A stretch of 12,176 bases of DNA from Pirellulales bacterium (lineage in GTDB: Bacteria > Patescibacteriota > Patescibacteriia > JBDRGY01), in contig JAIWBS010000009.1 in the NCBI GenBank assembly GCA_048633705.1, positions 1 to 12,176 of the forward strand, read 5' to 3'. The translations under genes were made by a program, and so were the position numbers. Below the pieces are notes generated by a model. The model was not told where the DNA came from. It worked only from the letters and a program-made list of their open reading frames with translations, and did no database searches. Within the stretch, counting starts at the first letter, position 1, and the number at the start of each line of letters is the position of its first letter. This document shows, one piece after another, positions 1-12,176 of this stretch.

Positions 1-1
1 C

Positions 2-793
2 CCCTCTGATATAAAAGAGAATTTCAGCAAAGCAGGCACCAGTCATATTATTGCCATCTCGGGGATGCACATTACTATCATATCGGGCTTGATTCTCGGC
101 CTACTGATGGGCATTGGCTTTAATCGCAAGCAGGCATTTTTGGCAGCTACCATGATACTGCTAATTTATCTGTTTATAATCGGTTTTCCGGCCTCGGCAG
201 TCAGGGCAACCATTATGGGTTTTTTGGTAATGTGGGCAATGTATTTAGGCCGGCTAAATAATTCCCTGAACGCTCTTTTATTAACAGCTTCGATCATGCT
301 TTTGATAAATCCTAGACTGTTGAGGAATGATATTGGCTTTCAACTTTCTTTTGCCGCGGTTATCGGAATAATATATTTTAAACCACTTTTTGATAATCTA
401 TTCGCCAAACTGTCCAGTCGGTTCCAAATAAAAGAAGCAATTGCCATGACTTTAGCTGCTCAAATCACTACTTGGCCGCTGACAATTTATTATTTTGATA
501 AGTTTTCTCTAATTGCCCCAATTGCTAATGTTTTGATTGTGCCGGTTTTGCCCTTTGTCCTAATCTTAGGAATTATTGGAATAGGATTAGGATTTATTGT
601 ACCGTCCATGGCTCAGCTGGTTTTTTGGATTCTGTCTTTGTTGATCACTTATGTAATTAAAACAATTGAGGTATTGAGCACATTATCCTTTTCTTACCTA
701 AGGATTGAAGGATTTCAGCCGGTCTATATTCTGTTTGCTTATTGTCTAGTTTTTGGTTTACTATTTATAATAAGGAGAAGAAAATATGCCTAG
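2..793 (+). CDS. comEC: ComEC/Rec2 competence-domain polytopic membrane protein, 5'-truncated by the window edge
   Basis: The frame of the 65..793 ORF stays open back to nt 2, reading PSDIKENFSKAGTSHIIAISGMH. The 'SHIIAISGMH' stretch matches the classic ComEC competence-domain signature (HLLAISGLH-like). The rest is multi-helix hydrophobic, typical of the ComEC channel domain. A stop at 791-793 overlaps the next ORF's start. Confidence 0.75.
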   Translation, partial: PSDIKENFSKAGTSHIIAISGMHITIISGLILGLLMGIGFNRKQAFLAATMILLIYLFIIGFPASAVRATIMGFLVMWAMYLGRLNNSLNALLLTASIMLLINPRLLRNDIGFQLSFAAVIGIIYFKPLFDNLFAKLSSRFQIKEAIAMTLAAQITTWPLTIYYFDKFSLIAPIANVLIVPVLPFVLILGIIGIGLGFIVPSMAQLVFWILSLLITYVIKTIEVLSTLSFSYLRIEGFQPVYILFAYCLVFGLLFIIRRRKYA

Positions 794-1640
794 TCGCTAT
801 AAACTATTAATAATTATTGTTGTCCTTATGGCTGTTGGGGCAGGAGTTTTCTTTTGGCTTTATAGAGAAAGTCCCCAACAGCTGGAAGTAATTTTTATGG
901 ATATTGGCCAAGGTGATGCGATTTTGATTAAAACACCATACGACCAGCAAATATTAATTGATGGGGGACCAGACAATTCAATTCTCCAAAAATTGGGAGA
1001 ACATATGCCGTTTTGGGACAGGTCGATTGATTTGATGATACTAACTCATCCCCATTCAGATCACGTGGGCGGCTTAGTGGCAGTGTTGGATCGCTATGAA
1101 GTAGCCAATATTTTCTACACTGGAGTCAGTTGTCATTCGCCCGATTATTTGGCTTGGCTAGAAAAAATCGAAAAAAAAGGAATCCCCCTAAAGATTATGA
1201 AGATTGGGAACAAAATAACTTTGGGCGGTGATTTGGTTTTGGATACGCTATTTCCCTTCCAGGATTTGACCGATCAAGAAGTAGATGATTTAAATGGCAC
1301 CTCGATTGTCAACAGGCTGGTTTACGGCCAGCACAGTTTTCTATTAACCGGTGATTTGACTTCTGTGCAGGAAGAAGAAATTTTACAAAAGAGATTAATT
1401 ATTGAATCAGATGTTTTGAAAGTAGGGCATCATGGTTCAAAGTATTCTTCCTCGCCAGATTTTTTGGAGACAGTTGATCCACAATACGCGGTTATTCAAG
1501 TGGGCCAAGATAATAGGTTTGGCCATCCTCATCTTCTTACTATACAAAATCTAGAAAATGCAGATGCTGTGATTTTGCGCAATGACCGACAGGGTGACAT
1601 TAAATGTCAGTCGGATAAGGTTGTTTTATCTTGTTTTTAG
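786..1640 (+). CDS. comEC: ComEC-type metallo-beta-lactamase-fold domain protein with an N-terminal TM anchor, encoded as a separate ORF
   Basis: The 786..1640 ORF has an N-terminal TM helix (LLIIIVVLMAVGAGVFFWLY). It then shows 'IFMDIGQGDAILIK', an HxHxDH motif 'HPHSDHVGG' and 'VGHHGSKYSS', which together are characteristic of the ComEC C-terminal MBL domain. An SD-like AGGAGA lies 7 nt upstream of the ATG. The start overlaps the upstream stop in ATGCCTAG. Confidence 0.8.
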   Translation: MPSRYKLLIIIVVLMAVGAGVFFWLYRESPQQLEVIFMDIGQGDAILIKTPYDQQILIDGGPDNSILQKLGEHMPFWDRSIDLMILTHPHSDHVGGLVAVLDRYEVANIFYTGVSCHSPDYLAWLEKIEKKGIPLKIMKIGNKITLGGDLVLDTLFPFQDLTDQEVDDLNGTSIVNRLVYGQHSFLLTGDLTSVQEEEILQKRLIIESDVLKVGHHGSKYSSSPDFLETVDPQYAVIQVGQDNRFGHPHLLTIQNLENADAVILRNDRQGDIKCQSDKVVLSCF

Positions 1641-1644
1641 TTTG

Positions 1645-1653
1645 TGCTATAAT
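1645..1653 (+). promoter_or_regulatory. Extended -10 element TGcTATAAT, 9 nt upstream of the ATG at 1663, implying a leaderless or near-leaderless transcript
   Basis: TGCTATAAT sits at 1645-1653 and the ATG at 1663. There is no SD in between. Confidence 0.4.
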
Positions 1654-1662
1654 TTTTAGTAT

Positions 1663-2334
1663 ATGAAAGAAGATCAATCAGAACAAGCTATTCCCAAGCC
1701 GTGGTATTTTAAGCCCTGGGAGGTTTTGGTTTCTTTTTTATTGGTGATCGTTCTAGTTTGGTTGATTGGTTTGAATATGTGGTTATGGAATCCTGATCCT
1801 TTTCCTGAAGACAATGAGCAAGCAGCCAACCCTTTTGCTACTGACGTAGACGATGATCCCTCTTGGGGTCCGCTAAATTCCGGAATTACTATTATTTCTT
1901 TTCAGGATTTTACCTGTTCAGCTTGTGCCCAGGCTTACCAAGCCATGAAGCAGTTAAGGGAAAATTATCTGACCAAAATTCATTTTGTGTTTAGAGATTT
2001 TCCGATTATCGGGGCTAATTCAACCGTTGCCGCTATGGCAGCAGAATGTGCCGATGATCAGGGGAAATTTTGGGAAATGCACGATAAACTTTTTGAAAAT
2101 CAAGAAAGAATATCCAAAGAGTACGTCAAAGCTTTTGCTGCTCAGATCGGTTTAGATATGATGGATTTTAATGAATGTTACGATTCCAATAAATATCTCA
2201 ATGAGATTCGCAATGATTTCAATGAAGGATTGGCAGCCGGAGCTACTGCCACACCGACTTATTTTGTCAACGGCACCAGAGTTGAAGGTGCTTTTAGTTA
2301 TGATGTCTGGGCGGAGGTGATTGAGAGTATTTAG
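1663..2334 (+). CDS. Membrane-anchored DsbA/BdbD-family thiol-disulfide oxidoreductase (thioredoxin fold)
   Basis: The 1663..2334 ORF has an N-terminal TM helix (VLVSFLLVIVLVWLIGL). Its CxxC active site reads 'FTCSACAQ'. A cis-Pro loop 'ATPTYFVNG' and 'GKFWEMHDKLF' match the DsbA-like Thioredoxin_4 family. Confidence 0.8.
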   Translation: MKEDQSEQAIPKPWYFKPWEVLVSFLLVIVLVWLIGLNMWLWNPDPFPEDNEQAANPFATDVDDDPSWGPLNSGITIISFQDFTCSACAQAYQAMKQLRENYLTKIHFVFRDFPIIGANSTVAAMAAECADDQGKFWEMHDKLFENQERISKEYVKAFAAQIGLDMMDFNECYDSNKYLNEIRNDFNEGLAAGATATPTYFVNGTRVEGAFSYDVWAEVIESI

Positions 2335-2365
2335 CAGTAGTTACTCTTATTAATCTGTTTCGGGG

Positions 2366-2393
2366 TTGACATTTTTTTTAATTGTGTTAAGAT
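2366..2393 (+). promoter_or_regulatory. Sigma70-like promoter: -35 TTGACA, 16-nt spacer, extended -10 TGtTAAGAT
   Basis: TTGACA at 2366-2371, TG at 2385-2386, TAAGAT at 2388-2393. AAGGA lies 6 nt before the ATG at 2432. Confidence 0.4.
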
Positions 2394-2431
2394 TTGAAAA
2401 CAAGTTAAAAATTAATAAATAAAGGAAAAAT

Positions 2432-3205
2432 ATGGAAGACGAAAAAACACCAGAAAGTAAGGGGTTATTTAAGAATCAATCCAAATTAACCTTTATGTTG
2501 GGTTTATTTATAGGGATTGCCGTGGTATCCACTTTTGCTTTCTTTTTTACGCTAGTTGTTCTGCTTAATGATGGCGAAGAGAGTGGAAATGTGGCTTCTG
2601 CCGACGGAGCCGTGGCCGGTCAAGCTGACGCTGATCCCGGTCCAATACCAACAGACGGTACAGCACCGCAAGCTCAAGGTAATATCGAACTGATTGTTAC
2701 CATCGACGACAATACACCAATTCGGGGCAACAAAGATGCCAAAGTGACCTTAATTGAATTTTCTGATTTTGAATGTTCTTATTGTTCCAGGCATCAGGAA
2801 ACTTTGAAACAGATCGTGGATGAATTTCCCAATGATGTTAGATTGGTCTACAAGCACTTTCCTTTGTCATTCCACACCAATGCTCAGAAAGCAGCTGAAG
2901 CCTCAGAATGTGCCGGTGAGCAAGGTAAGTTTTGGGAAATGCATGACAAACTATACGAAGCAGCCGCTAACAAAGAATTGAGTGTAGAGAAATATAAAGA
3001 GTTGGCCAAAGATCTGGGTTTAAATACCGGTCAATTCGATTCCTGTCTGGATGACGGCACCTACGCTTCCAAAGTCCAATCAGATATGCAGGAAGGGATT
3101 GCGGCTGGCGTAGAAGGTACTCCTGGTACCTTTATCAACGGTACTCTGATTTCCGGAGCAGTACCCTACGATTCTTTCGTAACGGTGATTCAAGGCGAAC
3201 TCTAA
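2432..3205 (+). CDS. Second membrane-anchored DsbA/BdbD-family thiol-disulfide oxidoreductase, a paralog of the upstream gene
   Basis: The 2432..3205 ORF has a TM helix, then a low-complexity Ala/Gly/Asp/Pro linker, then a thioredoxin domain. The CxxC reads 'FECSYCSRH'. 'GKFWEMHDKLY' and the cis-Pro loop 'GTPGTFINGTL' are clearly paralogous to ORF 1663..2334. Confidence 0.8.
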   Translation: MEDEKTPESKGLFKNQSKLTFMLGLFIGIAVVSTFAFFFTLVVLLNDGEESGNVASADGAVAGQADADPGPIPTDGTAPQAQGNIELIVTIDDNTPIRGNKDAKVTLIEFSDFECSYCSRHQETLKQIVDEFPNDVRLVYKHFPLSFHTNAQKAAEASECAGEQGKFWEMHDKLYEAAANKELSVEKYKELAKDLGLNTGQFDSCLDDGTYASKVQSDMQEGIAAGVEGTPGTFINGTLISGAVPYDSFVTVIQGEL

Positions 3206-3966
3206 TGCCCTGGTGGCAATTTACAGATATATCTATAGGACCCTTGACTATTCAAGTCTGGGGTCTTTTGGTTTCTTTAGCTTTTTTGGTCAGCATCATC
3301 GTTGCTTATTTTGAACTAAAAAGAAAAGAGCTGGATAGTAAGATTGTTCTGGACTTGGCGGTCTGGATTATTATCGGGGCGATAATCGGCAGCCGGCTTT
3401 TTTACGTGATAAACGAGTGGAGCAAGTTCCAAAATAATCTGGTTGATATTTTTAAAGTTTGGGAAGGGGGCATGGCTTTGTATGGAGGGGTGGCACTGGG
3501 AAGCTTGGCTGCTTGGCTTTTTATCAAGAAAAAGAAACTAAAATTTGGACCGTACGCCGATGCAGTGCTTTTTGTTTTACCCTTGGGCTTGTTTATCGGC
3601 CGGATCGGTTGTTTCATGATTCACGATCATCTAGGCACAGTAACTAGCTTTCCCTGGGGCATAGAATACCAAGGGGCATTGCGGCACGAAACCGCCATGT
3701 ATAGTATGATAGCTAACCTGATTATATTTTTCTGTTTATTCTATATCAGAAAAGCCAAATTCAATTTTACCGGGCTGGTTTCTTCGGTGTTTATGATTTG
3801 GTACGGGGTGACCCGGTTTATTATCGATATGTTCCGAGCCCAGGATTTACCGATGTCTGATCCCAGAATTGGAGGATTTACCCCCTCGCAGTATATTAGC
3901 GTTTTGTTGGTCGTATTGGGTGTTTGGTTGTTGGTGAGAAAAAGGAGATTAGAGATCGGTAATTAG
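3205..3966 (+). CDS. lgt: Prolipoprotein diacylglyceryl transferase
   Basis: The 3205..3966 ORF is a 7-TM protein. Its N-terminus 'GPLTIQVWGLLVSLAFLVS' resembles Lgt 'GPLSIHWYGLMY'. 'GGMALYGGVALG' is present. A divergent Lgt signature 'GRIGCFMIHDHLG' (compare GRxGNFxNxExxG) and the C-terminal 'YGVTRFIIDMFR' (compare E. coli YGxFRFIIEFFR) support the call. The ATG overlaps the upstream stop (TAATG). Confidence 0.85.
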   Translation: MPWWQFTDISIGPLTIQVWGLLVSLAFLVSIIVAYFELKRKELDSKIVLDLAVWIIIGAIIGSRLFYVINEWSKFQNNLVDIFKVWEGGMALYGGVALGSLAAWLFIKKKKLKFGPYADAVLFVLPLGLFIGRIGCFMIHDHLGTVTSFPWGIEYQGALRHETAMYSMIANLIIFFCLFYIRKAKFNFTGLVSSVFMIWYGVTRFIIDMFRAQDLPMSDPRIGGFTPSQYISVLLVVLGVWLLVRKRRLEIGN

Positions 3967-4045
3967 TAATTAGAATAATTAAAAACTCCATTTAGTGGAA
4001 TTTTTTTGTTTATGGGTTTAAAATAAGGCTGCATTAGTTATAAGG

Positions 4046-4074
4046 TTGACAAATTCACAGATATGTGATAATAT
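4046..4074 (+). promoter_or_regulatory. Consensus sigma70 promoter: -35 TTGACA, 17-nt spacer, extended -10 TGaTAATAT
   Basis: TTGACA at 4046-4051, TG at 4066-4067, TAATAT at 4069-4074. The predicted TSS is ~4081, giving a ~127-nt leader to the ATG at 4208. Confidence 0.6.
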
Positions 4075-4207
4075 CACCCGTCATCCTAGGAGTATTGTCT
4101 CTTGGGACGATCTGTCCTTTTTAGGATGGAATATAGTGTACATTGACAAGTTCTGAGTGCTAAACAAGCAGTATAACCAATGGCCATCAAACACGGAGGT
4201 GATGAGA

Positions 4208-5632
4208 ATGTATTGGCCCATAGTGTGGATCTGTATCGTCGTTGCTGTCATCGTGCTGGCGGTTGTTTTTCACAAGAAGGTTATCGAGGCAATCACCAGA
4301 TCAGCTACTCAGGTGGCCAGAGAGATAGCCCACAAGACAGTGGATGCGCGCATCGACGAGCTGAAGCCGATTACTGAAGGAGAGGCTGAATCGTCTAGTC
4401 AGGGCGGTAACGCCACGCAAAGTCCGGTTTACGAGAGTGTACCGGACATCAAGATCCGAAAGAACAGCTGGTTACTCTTTCCACTGGTTATCCAGTTGAT
4501 AGCGGTTGTTGTCATCTGGTCGCTTACTAGCGGTTTCGGAGATTCCGGTTGGAGCTGGCAGGGTTTCGCCCAGGGTCTGGCTAAGGCCGGATTGCTGGAG
4601 CTCGGCCTGGCTCTTCTGATCAAGCCGCAGCGAGTCGAGCAGCGGAGAGCCCGAGGCATCGAGTTTCTGGGCCGTCCGGTAGCCATCGCTCTAGAAGGAC
4701 TGGTTTTCCTCTGGCGTTGGGAGAGACTAAGCACCAAGCTAGGTACTGCCGAAGATACCGACGGCAAGAAAGTAACCAGAGCGGTGCCTCATTTCGTGAC
4801 TTCTCGGATGGTTACCATAGACATGGAACCTGAGGATGTTCACGATGAGGACATGGTTCCCTTCAAGGTTCAGATGGCCATGAAGTATGAGGTAGTCTGG
4901 ACTGAACAGGGAATCGTAGCAGCTCTCTACGGTTTCGAAGGTGACATCGAGATGCATATTGACCAGTCACTGCGGTCGGCTCTGGCAGATTTTGCTGGCA
5001 GTAAGAAAGTCAAAGATGTTCCTAGTAGCCAGAAAGAGCTGGAAGCCAGTGTCGAAACGTACTTCAAGAAAGAGGCCCTCGATTTCGTTCATCGCTTCGG
5101 CTATAAGTTGAAACAGGCTGAGTACAAAGGCCTGACTAGTCGGTTCTCCGATGCTCTGGCGGCTGGACAAATCAAGAAAGCCCTGGCAGCTGGTGATATT
5201 GCGGAGGCTGAAGGTAAGAAGCGAGCTGCCATGAAGGGGACCGATGCCAGGGTCTACGACATCGAAGAGAGCGGTAAGGCAGAGGCCAAGCGTCGAAAGA
5301 TGCTGGCGAAAGCTGATGCCAAGCGGCTGGAGCAGGCTATCCTGCAGATGGCTGGTTCTAATACAGAATTGGCCCAGCTTTCAGCCGAGGATAGACGTCA
5401 TCTGGCTGAGCGGGCGGCTGATTACCTTGGCACGCTCGACTACAACGCGGCCATCAAGACAGGAGCAGCTGACGAGAGTACGGTCGTCTTTGCCTCCCAG
5501 AGAGTGCCTGGTGTTCAGTTGGACGAGGCAGCTCTGCGTAGTGTGGTTTACCGTGTCATGCACGAAACTCTACCCGGAGGCAACGAGGCTGAGAACGGAC
5601 CTGCTGCGGCTGGTGCTGCTGCCGGGCAGTAA
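4208..5632 (+). CDS. SPFH/band-7 (flotillin/YqiK-like) membrane protein with two N-terminal TM helices and an Ala/Glu/Lys-rich coiled-coil C-terminus, high-GC
   Basis: The ORF track starts this frame at GTG 4157. GGAGG at 4195-4199 is optimally spaced (8 nt) for ATG 4208, where 'MYWPIVWICIVVAVIVLAVVF' begins. The SPFH-like core reads 'IALEGLVFLWRWERLS...VPHFVTSRMVTIDMEPEDV...FKVQMAMKYEVV...LRSALADFAGSKKVKDV'. It is followed by EA/K-rich repeats 'AEAEGKKRAAMKGTDARVYDIEESGKAEAKRRKMLAKADAKRLEQA' that resemble flotillin coiled coils. GC is ~55-60% against ~37% in the flanks. Confidence 0.55.
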   Translation: MYWPIVWICIVVAVIVLAVVFHKKVIEAITRSATQVAREIAHKTVDARIDELKPITEGEAESSSQGGNATQSPVYESVPDIKIRKNSWLLFPLVIQLIAVVVIWSLTSGFGDSGWSWQGFAQGLAKAGLLELGLALLIKPQRVEQRRARGIEFLGRPVAIALEGLVFLWRWERLSTKLGTAEDTDGKKVTRAVPHFVTSRMVTIDMEPEDVHDEDMVPFKVQMAMKYEVVWTEQGIVAALYGFEGDIEMHIDQSLRSALADFAGSKKVKDVPSSQKELEASVETYFKKEALDFVHRFGYKLKQAEYKGLTSRFSDALAAGQIKKALAAGDIAEAEGKKRAAMKGTDARVYDIEESGKAEAKRRKMLAKADAKRLEQAILQMAGSNTELAQLSAEDRRHLAERAADYLGTLDYNAAIKTGAADESTVVFASQRVPGVQLDEAALRSVVYRVMHETLPGGNEAENGPAAAGAAAGQ

Positions 5633-5650
5633 GCCGGAAAGGAGGGCGCC

Positions 5651-6799
5651 ATGAAGGTTAAGTGGATTTGGATCGCGATGGCTGGCTTCCTGGCTCTCTG
5701 GCTTTTGTCCAACGTTGACTTCAGTCGGCCGGCTGAGACGGTGAAAGCTGAGGTTGGAGCAGTTCAGGGTCTCCAGTTTAACTGGCTCTGGGCGGTTATC
5801 GCTCTGATCGTGTTGATCGTAGTATTGGTCATTCTGGCCAAGAAAGGAATCCTGAAGAATACCGGGTTGCCGAGCAAACTGTTGCTAGCAATCTTGTTCC
5901 TGGTTATGGCTATCGGCATCTTAGTGGCTGTTATCAAGCCGGATCGGTTACTGTTGATGGCCAAAGGGGAACCAGTAATATTCTTCGTATGTCTGGGTTT
6001 GCTGATTGTGGGCATTGGGTTCTGGAAGTTGTCAGAGCTGAACTACCCAGTCTGGTTTGCTTTCGTTGCCTTGTTGCTAGTTCTGCCGATTGGTCTGGCA
6101 AGAACCAATCCAGATCGAACGCCGAGTCATGACGAGCTGGAAACCGTCTTCGAGCACGAATGTTACCCCATTACCGACCCTGAGCGTTTGGCCCAATTTC
6201 CCTCTGTAGTTCGGGCTTACGACGTTAAGGTCGGACTGATCGAGGGTGGTGTAGGTGTTAGTAAGATCACCTTCACTGCCGAGGATGAGGGGTACTGGTG
6301 CCTGCTACGCAATTGGCAGGGCTGGTGGTGTGTCGGTGACGAGAAGACAGGCCGTCCGGTGGTTGGTATTCAAGGAGAGCCATCCTGGGAGTACGGTGAC
6401 AACAGAATGTGTACTTCCCGGAAATGGAATGTCGGCGGCTTGATGTGTTGGATTGGTACGCCGTTTGCCTACGACATGCCGCGAAAAGGGCTCTATAGCC
6501 TCAAGCACAACCCTTACTGGGAGCCCAGTCATCCAGACTGTTTCTTGGTGGGAGGAGACAAGCTGTTTCCCATCTTAGCCAAGGACTGGCTGGAATGGCT
6601 GGGTACAGATGAGGGCAACATCGTACTCTGCGGCAACGAGTCTGAAAACGGCTACAATGATGGCAACAATCTAGGTTTTGTCTGGGGTGAGCTCTGGATT
6701 CTCAGAGAGCGCCCGGTAGAGAGCCAGTTGCTGCCGTTGTTGGAGAAGTCTCGTGGTCGTACGAGCACTCAGAACACATGTGGGGTTTCTCCCGCATGA
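5651..6799 (+). CDS. Polytopic membrane protein (~5 TM) with a ~230-aa C-terminal Cys- and Trp-rich domain of unknown function, high-GC
   Basis: The 5651..6799 ORF has GGAGGG 5 nt upstream of its ATG. Five hydrophobic helices occupy the first ~150 aa. The C-terminal domain holds 8 Cys and ~12 Trp (YWCLLRNWQGWWCVGD, MCWIGTPFAYD, HPDCFLVGG) and I recognise no family in it. Codon usage is GC-rich like the upstream gene. Confidence 0.6.
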   Translation: MKVKWIWIAMAGFLALWLLSNVDFSRPAETVKAEVGAVQGLQFNWLWAVIALIVLIVVLVILAKKGILKNTGLPSKLLLAILFLVMAIGILVAVIKPDRLLLMAKGEPVIFFVCLGLLIVGIGFWKLSELNYPVWFAFVALLLVLPIGLARTNPDRTPSHDELETVFEHECYPITDPERLAQFPSVVRAYDVKVGLIEGGVGVSKITFTAEDEGYWCLLRNWQGWWCVGDEKTGRPVVGIQGEPSWEYGDNRMCTSRKWNVGGLMCWIGTPFAYDMPRKGLYSLKHNPYWEPSHPDCFLVGGDKLFPILAKDWLEWLGTDEGNIVLCGNESENGYNDGNNLGFVWGELWILRERPVESQLLPLLEKSRGRTSTQNTCGVSPA

Positions 6800-6805
6800 C
6801 TTCAC

Positions 6806-6846
6806 GGCCCCAGCGAGCATCGCTTGCTGGGGCCTCTTCTTTTTCT
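6806..6846 (+). terminator. Rho-independent terminator
   Basis: GGCCCCAGCGAGC (6806-6818), loop ATC, GCTTGCTGGGGCC (6822-6834). This is a 13-bp stem with one G.U pair, followed by TCTTCTTTTTCT. Confidence 0.8.
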
Positions 6847-6861
6847 AAAAAGTGACAAAAT

Positions 6862-6870
6862 TGCTATAAT
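6862..6870 (+). promoter_or_regulatory. Extended -10 element TGcTATAAT, 6 nt upstream of the ATG at 6877 (leaderless-type)
   Basis: TGCTATAAT at 6862-6870. ATG at 6877 with no SD. This is the same architecture as at 1645-1663. Confidence 0.4.
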
Positions 6871-6876
6871 AAGGGC

Positions 6877-8427
6877 ATGAAGGTAATTACCAAAAAGGAA
6901 TGGCTTTGGGTTTTGATTTTTGCCTGTTTGGTGATGTTGGTAACAGTGGTTCCTTATATTTATGGAATGTTAATCAAGCCGGACAATTTGTATTTTTCCG
7001 GGGTGCACCGCTTAAATTCTGGCGATACTTATTCTTATCTGGCTTGGATGCAGCAAGCCAGAGAAGGTAACTGGCTATTCAAGATATTATACACAACTGA
7101 AGCACAGCCCAGAGTGATTTTCTTGCCGTTTTTTCTGGTGATGGGTTGGTTGGCCCGATTGACCAATTTATCCAATATTGCCTTTTTTCATTTATCCCGG
7201 TTTATTTTAGGGATAATTTTTTTATTGGTGGCCTATAAATTTTTGGCTCTGTTTTTTAATGAAGTTAGAAAAAGGAAAATTGCTTTGGCTGTTTTGGCCT
7301 TGAGTTCTGGTTTGGGTTGGTTATTTGGCAATTACAGTTTATCGACTGATAAATTCATGACCGAGTCCATTACCTTTTTAAATCTTTATGAATCCCCTCT
7401 CAATTTAATTTCTTTAATATTGATACTTACAACTTTTTATTTTTTACTACGCTCTTTTAAGGAGAATCAAAAGAGATTTATTGGTTTTTCTGGTTTGTCT
7501 TTGTTATTTTTACATTTGATTCATCCTTTTGATTCTATAACCGTAATGATTACTGTGGTTTTTTTGATGACTTTTTTATTCCTTTACAGTCGAGATTTTT
7601 GGCCTAAATTGAAAACGGCTATTTTTGTTATTTTGATTAGCTTGCCAGGATTATTTATTACCATTTTCGCCTTTATCAAAAATCCGGCTTTGCATAGCTG
7701 GCACGAAGCTAATGTCAGACTTTCTCCTTCTTTCTGGGCTTATTTATCGGGTTACGGTTTGTTGATAGTACTGGCCTTGTTTAGTATCAAAAAGTTTTCA
7801 GTTAAAGAAGACAAATTCTCTTTGGTTATGGCTTGGTTGATTACCACTTTAATTTTGATTTGGCAACCTTTTCTTCATTTCCAAAGAAAGTTTGCTTTAG
7901 GGTTGCATATCCCCATTGTTATTTTGGCGGTGATCGGTCTTTTCGGGCTGGCCAAGAAATTTAAATTATCCCGCAAATTTGTTATTGGTTTAATTATTGT
8001 CTTATCCTTTACCAACATCAAGATAATGTTAAACGACACCTATTCTTTCGACTCCCTGACTGCTCCTTATTATTGGAACCAGGATTATATCACGGCGATC
8101 GAGTGGCTGGCGGATCAAGAAAAAGGAGTAGTTTTGACTAATCCTAGTATTTCTAATATTGTTCCGGGTTTATCTGGTCAGACAGTTTATTCAGGACATA
8201 CTGATCAAACTAAAGATAGAGAGCATAAAATTGAAGAATTCAAATGGTTTATCAGTAGTCAGGGGACAATCACTGCCAAAAGGCAATTCTTGAGCGATAA
8301 AGGCATTAATTATATTCTTTATTTGACTGATTTAGTTGACGAGGATTATGTTTTAGTTCATCAAGATGATTTGGGATTAGAGCAAATTTATTTCAATGAC
8401 AGCTGTGCAATTTTCGGTTATAATTAA
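6877..8427 (+). CDS. Polytopic membrane protein, putative GT-C-fold glycosyltransferase (PMT_2/ArnT-like), with a C-terminal extracytoplasmic domain
   Basis: The 6877..8427 ORF has ~11 predicted TM helices. The first loop motif 'SGDTYSYLAWMQQAREGNWLF' resembles the ArnT/PMT 'DExRYAEIAREMxxSGDWxxP' region. A ~150-aa soluble C-terminal domain follows. The call rests on motif and topology only. Confidence 0.45.
   Translation: MKVITKKEWLWVLIFACLVMLVTVVPYIYGMLIKPDNLYFSGVHRLNSGDTYSYLAWMQQAREGNWLFKILYTTEAQPRVIFLPFFLVMGWLARLTNLSNIAFFHLSRFILGIIFLLVAYKFLALFFNEVRKRKIALAVLALSSGLGWLFGNYSLSTDKFMTESITFLNLYESPLNLISLILILTTFYFLLRSFKENQKRFIGFSGLSLLFLHLIHPFDSITVMITVVFLMTFLFLYSRDFWPKLKTAIFVILISLPGLFITIFAFIKNPALHSWHEANVRLSPSFWAYLSGYGLLIVLALFSIKKFSVKEDKFSLVMAWLITTLILIWQPFLHFQRKFALGLHIPIVILAVIGLFGLAKKFKLSRKFVIGLIIVLSFTNIKIMLNDTYSFDSLTAPYYWNQDYITAIEWLADQEKGVVLTNPSISNIVPGLSGQTVYSGHTDQTKDREHKIEEFKWFISSQGTITAKRQFLSDKGINYILYLTDLVDEDYVLVHQDDLGLEQIYFNDSCAIFGYN
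8396..8424 (+). promoter_or_regulatory. Candidate promoter for the large surface-protein gene, embedded in the 3' end of the upstream CDS: -35 ATGACA, 17-nt spacer, -10 TATAAT
   Basis: ATGACA at 8396-8401 and TATAAT at 8419-8424. AAGG lies 4 nt before ATG 8462. Confidence 0.35.
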
Positions 8428-8461
8428 TAATATCCGATTTACCATTAATAATTTAAGGTTT

Positions 8462-11400
8462 ATGAAGAAAGTATTCAGTTTAATGGTCGTAATCGTCCTC
8501 ATAGGCGGTTTTTTTGTTCCAAAAAGTATAGTCCAAGCTACTTACGGTGATGTGACGACTTATCTCGGTCATATATATGGCGGCGATGGTGGTCCAGCCC
8601 TGGATGCCTATTTAGATTTTCCAGAGGACATTGCAGTGGATTCTTCAGGTAATTTTTTTGTGGCTGATACCTATAATAATGTTATCCGGAAAATTAATTC
8701 ATCAGGCACTATTTCCACTTTGGCCGGTACCGGTTCTAATGGTTTGACTAATGGTGTAGCTTTATCAGCTGAATTTTCTTTGCCCAGGGGAGTGGCCCTA
8801 GACGGATCCGGTAATGTTTATGTAGCGGATACGGGTAATAACGTTATTAGAAAAATATCAGGGGGAACAGTAACTACTTTAGTTAGCTCAGGTTTATCCG
8901 GGCCAGAGGGTTTGGTGGTTTACGGTTCAACCGTTTTCATCGCTGATACCGGCAATGATGCCATAAAAACAGTATCAACTTCTGGAGGCTCGGTGGCTAC
9001 TTTAGCCGGTTCGGGATTAAGTTCTCCCAAAAAAATTGACATCTCCAGTGGCGGTACACTTTTATACGTAGCTGATGCTGGTAGTTATCGAGTTTTGACT
9101 GTAGACACCGGAACCGGGGCAGTGGCTGTTTTAGCCGGCTCTGGAACCGAAGGATATCAAGAGGGAATTGGCACGGCAGCCAAGTTTCAAAACATCTGGG
9201 GGGTTACTCTTTACGATGGATATCTTTATGTAGCCGATGGGGATGGTTATGACGACTTGATCAGAAAGATTGACACTAGTACCGGCGAAACCAGTTTGTA
9301 CGCCGATGACAGTAATATGCTGTCAATCAATTTCGGTACCGGAATCAAAGTTTATGACGGATACATCTATTTATGCAATTCAGGGATCGGGACAATTCAT
9401 AAATTCAATTTACTGGACGATGGTGACAATGAACTATTTGCCGGTTATGAGCGATTTGGCTACCGCAATGGCACTAATCCGCTTTTTGGCCGGCCGCATG
9501 ATATGGTTATGACTAAAGACGGATCAACTTTTTATTTGGCTGATAATAATAAAATTAGAAAAATAGTTAAAGCGACTGGTAATACATCTTACATAACTGG
9601 CTCCTCGGTTGATAATTATCGAGAAGGTTTGCCAATGGGAGCCTCGGGTGGTATCGGAGTAGAGTCTCGCTTTAGTACCATTGCTTCTATTACTATTAAT
9701 AATGCCGGTACCTCCTTGTATCTAGTCGACCGTTGGAATAACCGTATTCGTAAAGTTGATTTATCTGATCCTGATTACCAAACATATCTGATTTCCGGGG
9801 CAGGACGAATAAACACCACTGGGCAGCAGACACACGGCTACCAAGAAGGGAAAAAATGTGTTTCGGTCAAAGATAAAGACGAGACATTTACCAAACAATC
9901 AGGTTGTGCCTATTTTGACAACCCCGCCGGAATTGTTATCTCTCCCGATAATAGCTATTTATATGTGGCTGATACCAATAATCAGCGAATTCGTAAGGTC
10001 AGTATTATCGACGGCCAGACTTCATTGGTAGCTGGCTCGGGTAGTGCTGCCTATAAAGATGGCACAGGATTGGCTGCCAGTTTTCACACACCTTATGGTA
10101 TAGCCATTGATCAATCTGGAGATTATTTATACGTGGCTGATCGGGATAATCACCGGATTAGAACAATTAATACCACGACCGGGGTGGTAACTACTTTGGC
10201 TGGCAACGGAACAGCTGGCTATCGAGACGCTATCGGTACGGATGCCGTATTTTCCTACCCAGAATATATTAAGATGGGAGCTGACGGTAATCTGTACGTG
10301 ACCGAAGTGGGTTCACACCGGATTCGAGTAGTAAATCCGATTACCGGCGACACCAGATTGGTAGCAGGTTCAGGCGATCGGGGTTTTGCTAACGGGGCCA
10401 AGGAGGAAGCAGAGTTCAATAATTTGGAAGGAATTGCCCCAGATACCGCCAATGACACAGTTTACGTAATAGACTCCTGGAATGATTTGATTCGCCAGGT
10501 GGATATCACTGGCGAGATTCCTTATACTGAACCGGCTCCAACAGTAACCTCTGTTGATCCGGATTTTGTGGAACCCAAATGGGACGACGGTACTGGTTTG
10601 CGGGTGAGGATTTTAGGTACCAATTTCCGTCATGGAGCAATTACCCAGTTTTACAATTATCGGGCAGAGGAGACTTATGTAGTTTCCAGTACAGAATTAG
10701 TTGCCGAATTGCCACTGGATCAAATGGCAGCCGGTTATTATGATGTCAAAGTAACTAATTTGGATGGTCAGTCAGCCACCTTGTCCAAGGGAATCGGAAT
10801 TTCTGATAATCTGGGCAGTGTTCCGGACGAACACTTTGCTTTGCCGGGAACGGTAAGTAATGAGGAAATAACTGTAGCTGAGGGTACTAGTTTTTACGCT
10901 TATGCCGAATCAATTCGCGGTGGTTATTACGTGGCAGTTGGCAATGTGAGGGATGATAATCGGGAAGAAATTGTGACCGGAACCGGAGAAGGGCTGGGAC
11001 CTCAAGTTCGAGTATTTGATTTGGAAGGCAATGATAAAACTACATTTTTTGCATACGCAGAACATTTAAGGTCGGGTATCAGGGTAGCGGTGGGAGATTT
11101 AAACGGCGATGGCAGGAACGAAATAATTACCGCTCCTGGTCCGGGTGGTCGTCCCCATATCCAGACTTTTGACGGTGATGGTAATCGATTAAATCCCGGT
11201 TTTATGGCTTTGGACGGGCAGTTTTTAGGTGGAGCTTTTGTAGCCTGTGGAGATATTAATGGTGATGGTAAAGACGAAATTATTGTTACAGCAGGGCCGG
11301 GTGGAGGACCGCATGTTACTGTTCACAATGGTGATGGGGAATTGTTAGCTTCTTTCTTTGCTTATGATCAGCATACTTTCCGTTATGGCATCAGACCGGC

Positions 11401-11821
11401 AGTTTTGGATCTAGACGGCGATGGTAAGATGGAAATCCTAACCGGCCCGGCAACCGGTTCACCTCACATTCAGACTTTCCAAATCAGGCCTAATGAAATC
11501 CGACAGCTTAATCCGGGTTTTTACGCCTATGATCCTGACTACAAGGGAGGAGTGTCAGTAACGGGAGGTGATATAGATGGTGATGGAGAGGATGAAATAA
11601 TAACCGGAGTAGGTGATCAAGCCACTCCTCTGGTTAGGGTATTTGATAATGACGGTTCTGGTCTTATCCGCCAAGAATTTTACGCCTATAACACTTCTTT
11701 TCTATCAGGAGTCAATGTTGCCTCCGGTGATGTAGACGGGGATGATATTGATGAAGTGGTTATGTCGCCTATGGCTGACGGAGGACCACAGATCAGGATA
11801 ATTGAAGTGGATAGATTATAG
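8462..11821 (+). CDS. Large secreted/surface multi-domain protein: signal peptide, 12 NHL repeats (two predicted 6-bladed beta-propellers), an IPT/TIG Ig-like domain, and 6 FG-GAP-like Ca-binding repeats
   Basis: This is the 8396..11821 ORF. ATG 8462 begins a signal peptide 'MKKVFSLMVVIVLIGGFFVPKSIVQA|TY'. There are twelve 'YVADxxNxRIRKI'-type NHL blades. The TIG-like segment is 'PTVTSVDPDF...YDVKVTNLDGQS'. Six ~51-aa repeats read 'F(Y)AY...GDxDGDGxxEIIT..G....P.v.vF'. No C-terminal anchor or LPXTG motif is present. Confidence 0.8.
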   Translation: MKKVFSLMVVIVLIGGFFVPKSIVQATYGDVTTYLGHIYGGDGGPALDAYLDFPEDIAVDSSGNFFVADTYNNVIRKINSSGTISTLAGTGSNGLTNGVALSAEFSLPRGVALDGSGNVYVADTGNNVIRKISGGTVTTLVSSGLSGPEGLVVYGSTVFIADTGNDAIKTVSTSGGSVATLAGSGLSSPKKIDISSGGTLLYVADAGSYRVLTVDTGTGAVAVLAGSGTEGYQEGIGTAAKFQNIWGVTLYDGYLYVADGDGYDDLIRKIDTSTGETSLYADDSNMLSINFGTGIKVYDGYIYLCNSGIGTIHKFNLLDDGDNELFAGYERFGYRNGTNPLFGRPHDMVMTKDGSTFYLADNNKIRKIVKATGNTSYITGSSVDNYREGLPMGASGGIGVESRFSTIASITINNAGTSLYLVDRWNNRIRKVDLSDPDYQTYLISGAGRINTTGQQTHGYQEGKKCVSVKDKDETFTKQSGCAYFDNPAGIVISPDNSYLYVADTNNQRIRKVSIIDGQTSLVAGSGSAAYKDGTGLAASFHTPYGIAIDQSGDYLYVADRDNHRIRTINTTTGVVTTLAGNGTAGYRDAIGTDAVFSYPEYIKMGADGNLYVTEVGSHRIRVVNPITGDTRLVAGSGDRGFANGAKEEAEFNNLEGIAPDTANDTVYVIDSWNDLIRQVDITGEIPYTEPAPTVTSVDPDFVEPKWDDGTGLRVRILGTNFRHGAITQFYNYRAEETYVVSSTELVAELPLDQMAAGYYDVKVTNLDGQSATLSKGIGISDNLGSVPDEHFALPGTVSNEEITVAEGTSFYAYAESIRGGYYVAVGNVRDDNREEIVTGTGEGLGPQVRVFDLEGNDKTTFFAYAEHLRSGIRVAVGDLNGDGRNEIITAPGPGGRPHIQTFDGDGNRLNPGFMALDGQFLGGAFVACGDINGDGKDEIIVTAGPGGGPHVTVHNGDGELLASFFAYDQHTFRYGIRPAVLDLDGDGKMEILTGPATGSPHIQTFQIRPNEIRQLNPGFYAYDPDYKGGVSVTGGDIDGDGEDEIITGVGDQATPLVRVFDNDGSGLIRQEFYAYNTSFLSGVNVASGDVDGDDIDEVVMSPMADGGPQIRIIEVDRL
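8540..10510 (+). repeat. Intragenic array of 12 NHL repeats (protein-level tandem repeats)
   Basis: Recurring motifs include VADTYNNVIRKIN, VADTGNNVIRKIS, IADTGNDAIKTVS, VADAGSYRVLTVD, LIRKID, LADNNKIRKIVK, LVDRWNNRIRKVD, VADTNNQRIRKVS, VADRDNHRIRTIN, VTEVGSHRIRVVN and VIDSWNDLIRQVD. Confidence 0.7.
10889..11818 (+). repeat. Intragenic array of 6 FG-GAP/integrin-alpha-like repeats with DxDGDGxxE calcium-binding loops, period ~150-165 nt
   Basis: Repeat starts are at ~10892, 11044, 11200, 11353, 11518 and 11668 (FYAYAE, FFAYAE, FMALDG, FFAYDQ, FYAYDP, FYAYNT). Each is followed by GDLNGDGRNEIITAPGPGGRPHIQTF-type segments. Confidence 0.65.
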
Positions 11822-11907
11822 GAGTATAGATATTACCCTGGAAGAGGTGATCAAAAAAATCAGAGCCAAAGCAGGCGTTTAATTTTTCTAAATTCATAAA
11901 TATCCTT

Positions 11908-11936
11908 TTGACAAAAAGTTAAATTTAGTGTATAAT
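11908..11936 (+). promoter_or_regulatory. Consensus sigma70 promoter: -35 TTGACA, 17-nt spacer, -10 TATAAT
   Basis: TTGACA at 11908-11913. Spacer 11914-11930. TATAAT at 11931-11936 with TG immediately upstream. TSS ~11943. Confidence 0.6.
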
Positions 11937-12005
11937 AGTAGTAAGAAATATATTAATCTTGCAGTAAAGTACGGATAGATGATTAATAAATTAATCGGAG
12001 AAAAT

Positions 12006-12033
12006 TAGACCTTTTGTAGGTCTTTTATAATTT
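12006..12033 (+). other. Terminator-like hairpin (AGACCT / AGGTCT, 5-nt loop) plus a U-rich tract, ending 1 nt before the ATG at 12034. Candidate leader attenuator.
   Basis: AGACCT at 12006-12011, loop TTTGT, AGGTCT at 12017-12022, then TTTATAATTTT. It lies ~65-90 nt downstream of the consensus promoter. Confidence 0.35.
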
Positions 12034-12176
12034 TATGAAAAGCGAACATAAATCAAAACAAACTTCCGGAAATTTGGCCAAGGCGATCTTGTTAGTGATT
12101 GGCTTTGGTTTTTAAAGAAGAATGCGTGGTTTATACTTACGTTATTCAGAGTGAAAAAGATGGTAAATGGTATACC
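12034..12176 (+). CDS. 3'-truncated ORF encoding a small N-terminally anchored membrane protein (47+ aa, runs off the window)
   Basis: ATG at 12034. My own translation reads MKSEHKSKQTSGNLAKAILLVIGLWFLKKNAWFILTLFRVKKMVNGIP with no stop before the window end. It shows a basic N-terminus followed by a hydrophobic helix. It is not in the supplied ORF track because it is truncated. Confidence 0.35.

Follow-up and report, generated by a model that had tools for sequence, protein, structure and literature searches.

The stretch of DNA analysed here, hereafter the window, is 12,176 nt long (GCA_048633705.1, contig JAIWBS010000009.1, positions 1-12,176, forward strand), with all of its large open reading frames (ORFs) on the + strand. 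Between lgt and the gene of a 516-aa membrane protein it carries a GC-rich island of two genes, the first encoding a divergent SPFH/Band 7 protein (P0002) and the second a 382-aa membrane protein, the target of this study, which ends in a 228-residue tail rich in cysteine and tryptophan. The target is a real gene, its tail is a strict orphan with no detectable relatives in the collections searched, and the island is foreign, horizontally acquired by a Patescibacteria (Magasanikbacteria-like) genome. The evidence further supports the target as the operon partner of the SPFH protein. The features of the island and its borders are as follows.

4046-4074, + strand: sigma-70-like promoter, TTGACA-17-TAATAT with TG, a consensus match only, located in the AT-rich spacer that precedes the island.
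4150-6840, no strand assigned: GC-rich two-gene island (50-58%) of about 2.7 kb between lgt and the 516-aa gene, from the composition profile and codon-position GC.
4208-5632, + strand: divergent SPFH/Band 7 gene, P0002, 474 aa, from its Pfam Band_7 match.
5633-5650, + strand: 18-nt spacer between the SPFH and partner genes, with the ribosome-binding site (RBS) AAGGAGG at 5639-5645, from the sequence.
5651-6799, + strand: target ORF, 382 aa, the tail without family match.
5651-6112, + strand: N-terminal membrane anchor of five hydrophobic helices, from hydropathy peaks, with AlphaFold2 (AF2) helices at the same positions.
6113-6799, + strand: C-terminal 228-aa Cys/Trp-rich orphan domain (residues 155-382 and the stop codon), from composition, motifs and the codon model.
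6806-6844, + strand: intrinsic terminator-like hairpin of 13 bp with 10 G-C pairs, followed by a T tract, 7 nt past the target stop.

The five hydrophobic segments of the target (residues about 3-20, 43-63, 77-95, 109-125 and 133-150) coincide with the helices of its AF2 model, and all of them precede the tail, which is encoded in frame by positions 6113-6799. The layout proposed by the initial annotation, five helices and then a Cys/Trp-rich C-terminus, is borne out: 8 Cys (residues 171, 217, 227, 254, 266, 297, 327 and 377) and 12 Trp fall within the 228 aa, and the four local motifs which it quoted are all located there, starting at residues 215, 251, 294 and 324. Tryptophan makes up 5.3% of the tail, where local nucleotide composition would lead one to expect 2.5 +/- 1.0% (binomial P = 0.012) and the other proteins of the window have 1.5% (P = 2.5e-4); the corresponding values for cysteine are 3.5% and, in the other window proteins, 0.6% (P = 1e-4). 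The tail is acidic (33 D/E to 21 K/R over residues 155-382). No CxxC or CxxH spacing of metal-binding type occurs among its eight cysteines, and two of its loops, as read from the sequence, are alike, C217-LLRNWQGWW-C227 and C254-TSRKWNVGGLM-C266, both following the pattern C-x2-R-x-W-x(4-6)-C.

That the target is a real gene is evident at the level of its coding sequence. Its 382 codons are more than any stop-free stretch that arose when the island was shuffled 300 times (longest stretch 144 on average, 305 at most), and its GC content at the first, second and third codon positions (0.56/0.45/0.62) is like that of the SPFH gene (0.63/0.42/0.58). With the SPFH gene as training set, a codon model prefers the annotated frame in 14 of 14 intervals of 150 nt, and this frame is also the best of six over the tail, with a weak margin at 6326-6450, where the score is near zero or negative. 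A frameshift or wrong-frame origin of the tail is ruled out by the model, and the two alternative-frame ORFs inside the tail region match no Pfam family (E <= 10). The AAGGAGG sequence sits 5 nt 5' of the target ATG. Sigma-70-like consensus sites are no more numerous than in shuffled sequence, and the 5' leader yielded nothing significant in Rfam searches or on folding.

The orphan status of the tail emerges from every search made with it. Pfam profiles gave no match at E <= 0.1 or subsequently at E <= 10, to the whole tail or to either half, and NCBIfam, PHROGs and PADLOC gave none to the tail. A word-indexed search of 5.8 billion proteins, queried with the complete target and, separately, with its tail, and an exhaustive phmmer search, in which 1.84 billion representatives stood for about 15 billion proteins, both returned only the target itself, which is the single member of its 90% cluster. 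A sequence search of the PDB (E <= 10) gave chance-level matches only. So did tblastn when the tail was compared with all 32 fetched loci and the remainder of the window, and in collections of phages and plasmids tblastn found nothing that matched the tail. No relatives were found by back-translated pattern scans of metagenome, viral and genome collections using the tail, the SPFH alignment or both, and exact-sequence look-ups found no further copy of the target or of the gene downstream. The statement in the initial annotation that the domain bears no known fold signature is therefore upheld by the profile, sequence and PDB searches, in which no confident family match appeared.

Two families with sub-threshold matches to the target were considered and rejected. 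Acyl_transf_3 (PF01757) scored 20.1 bits against a cutoff of 31 and covered transmembrane (TM) helices only, and the DsbB/DsbI profile NF003304 scored 14.6 bits against a cutoff of 212. Members of the latter family have two Cys pairs in extracytoplasmic loops of a 4-TM core; the single cysteine in the TM region of the target, C114, lies inside helix 4. Both matches to the TM region look like matches of hydrophobic composition.

Structure prediction with AF2, run without an alignment, gave a mean confidence (predicted local distance difference test, pLDDT) of 46 for the full protein and 41 for the tail alone, hinting, at this pLDDT of 41-46, at mostly β secondary structure in the tail. Foldseek comparison of the AF2 models with the PDB found nothing at E <= 0.001, the TM-scores (at most 0.17) being meaningless, as expected. 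The initial annotation had suggested that the domain might bind carbohydrate or peptidoglycan, a suggestion which finds no support here. No lectin or other binding module (bulb-type lectin, ricin-B, LysM, SH3b, carbohydrate-binding modules or other Pfam families of this kind) matched at E <= 10, and the best self-alignment of the tail scored 35, compared with 30.7 +/- 5.5 for shuffles, so that an internal repeat is not significant and the idea of a β-trefoil or β-prism lectin was dropped. The segment TDEGNIVLC of the tail resembles the bulb-lectin motif QxDxNxVxY only loosely.

The protein encoded immediately upstream matches Band_7 (PF01145) with 29.9 bits against a cutoff of 23.6, and is by this measure an SPFH/Band 7 protein; alternative starts for its gene lie at 4202 and 4157. 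A single homologue of it could be detected, P0003 (55% identity; Band_7 24.8 bits), encoded on a 1.8-kb JGI contig (Ga0438317_0081818, sample 3300045411; L001 below) of about 55% GC, and searches of PDB, phage and plasmid collections with the SPFH gene gave no match. On L001 the SPFH stop codon is likewise followed by an 18-nt spacer of near-identical sequence (GAAAGGAGGGC then ATG; L001 1454-1475, window 5630-5653), and beyond it by the gene of a multi-helix membrane protein, cut off by the contig end at residue 123. This partner is collinear with helices 2-3 of the target, at 31% identity over 55 residues (BLASTP E = 0.16) and with a local score of 57 compared with 38 +/- 7 for shuffles (P about 0.014). 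Since the spacer is near-identical and the partner only marginally alignable, the operon architecture is conserved, but its two genes evolve at very unequal rates, the partner far outpacing the SPFH protein in divergence. The 18-nt gap, the strong RBS and the recurrence of the same junction in the only homologous contig support the partnership with the SPFH protein that the initial annotation had envisaged. Its further proposal, that the domain may be the sensing or binding partner of the SPFH scaffold, stands as regards the operon partnership and its conserved junction, not as regards carbohydrate or peptidoglycan as the thing bound.

The SPFH protein itself has a two-segment hydrophobic hairpin followed by the basic stretch KPQRVEQRRARG, and its SPFH domain is, on this reading of the sequences, probably cytoplasmic. 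In the ORF from 4202, P0002 has an extra N-terminal TM helix (residues about 4-22) and a linker of ~60 residues (window 4208-4470), absent in the L001 orthologue (102-350), which may instead begin with a basic soluble extension if the ATG at L001 position 102 is used. The best-conserved part of the two SPFH proteins lies at the far C-terminus, outside Band_7 (residues about 405-450, window 5420-5560; LDYNAAI..GA.D.STV.FAS..VPGVQLDEAALRS), and may be an oligomerisation or cap element.

The SPFH gene and the target form a compositionally foreign island because their GC content of 50-58% (~55%) contrasts with 35-45% in the flanks (genome roughly 40%), and the island is absent from Lgt relatives. 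No integrase, tRNA or flanking direct repeat accompanies it in the window. Near both borders, at 4150-4161 and 6764-6775, stand the arms of a perfect 12-nt inverted repeat (GTTCTGAGTGCT / AGCACTCAGAAC); it was dropped as a candidate terminal repeat, its right arm being inside the ORF and the chance expectation, by our estimate, about 0.3 in 3.3 kb. Comparison with an empty site gave no precise insertion point, as the closest Lgt relatives are 45-47% identical and synteny with them stops after lgt. A second assembly (GCA_030617445.1, contig JAUWVJ010000010.1; L002 below) matches window 1-5897 at 99.98% identity with one mismatch (2563), so the left junction is independently supported; it ends at 5897, inside the TM region of the target. 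A Logan contig (SRR19020594; L033) agrees exactly with 2573-4087 and breaks off just before the rise in GC, and only JAIWBS010000009.1 contains the right junction (6799-6877). Strains with and without the island, or differences in coverage, might account for the assembly breaks at 4087 and 5897.

The genes that flank the island, with their best profile matches, are these.

65-793, + strand: C-terminal part of ComEC (DUF4131 and Competence membrane part).
786-1640, + strand: separate metallo-beta-lactamase ORF.
1663-2334 and 2432-3205, + strand: two TM-anchored DsbA-like thioredoxin-fold proteins with the motifs CSAC and CSYC.
3205-3966, + strand: Lgt (PF01790, E = 3e-58).
6877-8427, + strand: polytopic membrane protein, 516 aa, without family match.
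8396-11821, + strand: NHL/FG-GAP repeat protein, 1141 aa.

Relatives of Lgt place the host in Patescibacteria, the closest being Magasanikbacteria-type metagenome-assembled genomes (MAGs), 45-47% identical at best. The two DsbA genes and lgt form a block (window 1663-3966) that recurs in two relatives (L003, 7978-10774; L004, 8009-10771), both lacking the island; its retention among distant Patescibacteria links genes for disulfide formation and lipoprotein maturation. ComEC is seemingly split, its membrane part and the metallo-beta-lactamase being separate ORFs that overlap by 8 nt (window 65-1640; L002 3153-5256). The 516-aa protein (GC 35%) matches nothing in Pfam or NCBIfam even at E <= 10, and the 3' end of its gene shares 32 nt with the NHL/FG-GAP gene, counted from the longest-ORF start (8396). 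The product of the latter, with an N-terminal hydrophobic segment, NHL repeats in the N-terminal two thirds and FG-GAP repeats in the C-terminal third, is probably a large surface protein.

On which side of the membrane the tail lies is central to its interpretation. In an N-in/C-out arrangement the inside loops of the target (the N-terminus, KKGILKNTGLPSK and KLSELNY) hold 7 K/R and 1 D/E, net +6, and the outside loops 5 K/R and 5 D/E, net 0. The L001 partner, with three helices, has an equivalent basic loop after helix 2 (EKTRGFKLSWR), which predicts a C-out tail there too. From these loop charges we judge the tail to be probably extracytoplasmic, with some reserve. Disulfides in it are plausible because the distribution of charge modestly favours an outward tail; the even number of cysteines, the absence of metal-type spacing and the two similar loops would fit disulfide-closed hairpins better than metal sites.

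Our preferred reading, which we hold tentatively and at somewhat less than an even chance, is that the tail is a lineage-restricted orphan ectodomain carried by the five-helix operon partner of a divergent SPFH scaffold on an acquired island. The two genes, with their promoter-like site, RBS and terminator, form a self-contained operon. The target would sit N-in/C-out, exposing an acidic, mostly β domain rich in Cys, Trp, Gly and Asn outside the membrane of a monoderm cell, where up to four disulfides, introduced by the membrane-anchored DsbA-like oxidoreductases of the host, could stabilise it. In the manner known for SPFH proteins and their NfeD partners or FtsH, an SPFH oligomer might corral the five-helix anchor within the membrane, and an exposed module for binding or sensing would thereby be clustered or gated. 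We infer the topology, the disulfides, the tie between SPFH protein and client, and any ligand.

Several observations count against this preferred reading. Although net loop charge favours a C-out tail, the difference in K+R alone is small (7 inside, 5 outside) and becomes a tie of 7 to 7 once the first 15 tail residues, with R151 and R156, are counted. The cysteine content of 3.5% equals that of a random translation of the same G+T-rich DNA (3.6%), and because the frequency matches this expectation, Cys richness alone is no proof of selection. No homologue was found that could attest to Cys conservation or to purifying selection on the domain, and AF2, at pLDDT 41-46, gave no confident fold. 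The SPFH domain and the tail would lie on opposite sides of the membrane, making direct contact between cage and client less obvious. Nor are the DsbA genes linked to the island. The initial annotation had placed them immediately upstream, which is inexact, as lgt and the SPFH gene intervene before the target ORF, and their proximity fails as evidence: because the DsbA-DsbA-Lgt block is conserved in relatives without the island, its closeness here is coincidental.

A comparison with hosts that possess oxidoreductases of DsbA, BdbD or MdbA type illustrates both sides. The tail is like the DsbA-substrate ectodomains of such hosts in its even Cys number (8), its lack of metal spacing, its probable location outside and the presence in the host of two TM-anchored CxxC DsbA-like proteins; it is unlike them in that its disulfides are predicted only, and that the DsbA genes belong to a host block unrelated to the island. 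A likeness in concept exists to HflK/C-FtsH, in which an SPFH assembly confines a membrane protein with an extracytoplasmic domain (PMC10434171 and established knowledge). The differences are that here the SPFH domain follows a two-segment hairpin and is probably cytoplasmic, that there is one SPFH gene and no K/C pair, and that neither an AAA nor a protease domain is present in the client.

The closest parallel is with SPFH-NfeD operons. SPFH genes are commonly paired with that of a membrane partner bearing a soluble C-terminal domain, as where qmcA lies upstream of ybbJ (PMC10434171, PMC2636767, PMC4208085), and the NfeD domain of such partners is a small, five-stranded OB-fold (PMC4208085). 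In E. coli qmcA-ybbJ and yqiJ-yqiK, B. subtilis yuaF-floT and P. horikoshii PH1510-PH1511, as at this locus, an SPFH gene is tightly linked to the gene of a multi-helix protein with a soluble C-terminal domain, β-rich in those systems and perhaps so here; the SPFH gene stands upstream of the membrane partner, as in qmcA-ybbJ, and the target is adjacent to and co-oriented with a Band_7 gene across the 18-nt gap, as on L001. A ClpP-like protease domain is absent here. The OB-fold of NfeD proteins has roughly 60-70 residues, and their C-domains are generally placed on the cytoplasmic side, together with the SPFH partner.

These parallels allow a different explanation, that the target is an NfeD-like analogue oriented N-out/C-in, its tail lying inside or beneath a cytoplasmic SPFH cage and its cysteines serving as free thiols or as metal or redox ligands. 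The gene order, the plan of TM helices followed by a soluble C-terminal domain, the hairpin and basic stretch that suggest a cytoplasmic SPFH domain, and the K+R tie when the tail flank is included are all consistent with this. We nevertheless consider it unlikely. NfeD (PF01957) matched neither the full protein, the tail nor its halves in Pfam even at E <= 10, and found no counterpart in NCBIfam; the 228-aa tail is ~3-4 times the size of the OB-fold given above, is Cys/Trp-rich and lacks the spacing of metal sites; and in the target as in the L001 partner the net charge of the loops speaks for C-out, which would put the tail probably on the outer face. The conserved junction supports a functional pair like that of qmcA-ybbJ, yet the target is not, by these profiles, a member of the NfeD family.

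A second alternative holds that only the TM anchor is the functional partner, and that the extension is weakly constrained or decaying, either drifting fast or recently originated, without a stable conserved fold. It would account for a singleton among about 15 billion proteins, for the gap between the marginal similarity of the partners and the 55% identity of the SPFH proteins, for the stretch at 6326-6450 with its near-zero or negative codon score, for a cysteine content equal to the nucleotide expectation and for the very low AF2 confidence. The last of these is to be expected of any protein given to AF2 as a single sequence, however, and a drifting tail would sit uneasily with an intact extension of 228 codons whose correct frame is preferred throughout, codon-position GC like that of the neighbouring conserved gene, tryptophan enriched beyond composition, and an even number of cysteines, four of which bound the two similar loops (217-227 and 254-266). 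We regard a decaying tail as distinctly unlikely.

It is highly unlikely that the two genes are an anti-phage or stress cassette of abortive-infection type, with the SPFH protein as sensor of membrane perturbation and its polytopic partner as membrane effector. The island is indeed small, foreign in composition, self-contained and patchy in distribution, and the SPFH gene has matches to the PADLOC candidates PDC-S05 and PDC-S23, but these are weak (E = 0.004-0.03) and confined to the generic SPFH core, the target has none, neither PHROGs nor the phage and plasmid collections gave a match, no defence genes are neighbours in the window, and the literature offered only passing mentions of SPFH proteins beside anti-phage defence terms. 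Finally, an assembly artefact, a chimeric join of a GC-rich segment from another organism that would make the host, DsbA and SPFH context misleading, is hardly credible despite the sharp GC jumps at about 4150-4200 and about 6840, the breaks of other assemblies near or inside the island and a right junction seen once, for the independent NCBI assembly also contains the left junction together with 1.7 kb of the island, the island's own terminator is followed directly by host-like, AT-rich sequence with the start of the next gene, and the ORF and its SPFH partner would stay intact and linked even in a chimera.

A bolder version of the preferred reading, that of an acquired orphan ectodomain on an SPFH partner, may also be framed, and we think it doubtful. 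Here a previously unseen, disulfide-rich extracellular fold would replace the NfeD OB-fold and couple a cytoplasmic SPFH assembly, through the five-helix membrane anchor, to a surface-exposed module for sensing or for ligand binding, the whole forming a mobile two-gene unit acquired by a Patescibacteria cell that is ultra-small and probably lives attached to a host.

Patescibacteria MAGs commonly contain orphan domains and, as things stand, the tail is one among very many singleton orphan domains in metagenome-assembled genomes. In Candidate Phyla Radiation cells surface proteins mediate attachment to the host. If the tail is indeed a folded, disulfide-bonded ectodomain tied to an SPFH protein, it would be one more small Cys/Trp-rich fold, and a new one, and operons of SPFH proteins and their partners would not be limited to partners of NfeD type. 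Such operons could then also bear surface modules and pass, as small cassettes, between bacteria that are only distantly related, cells of the Candidate Phyla Radiation among them.

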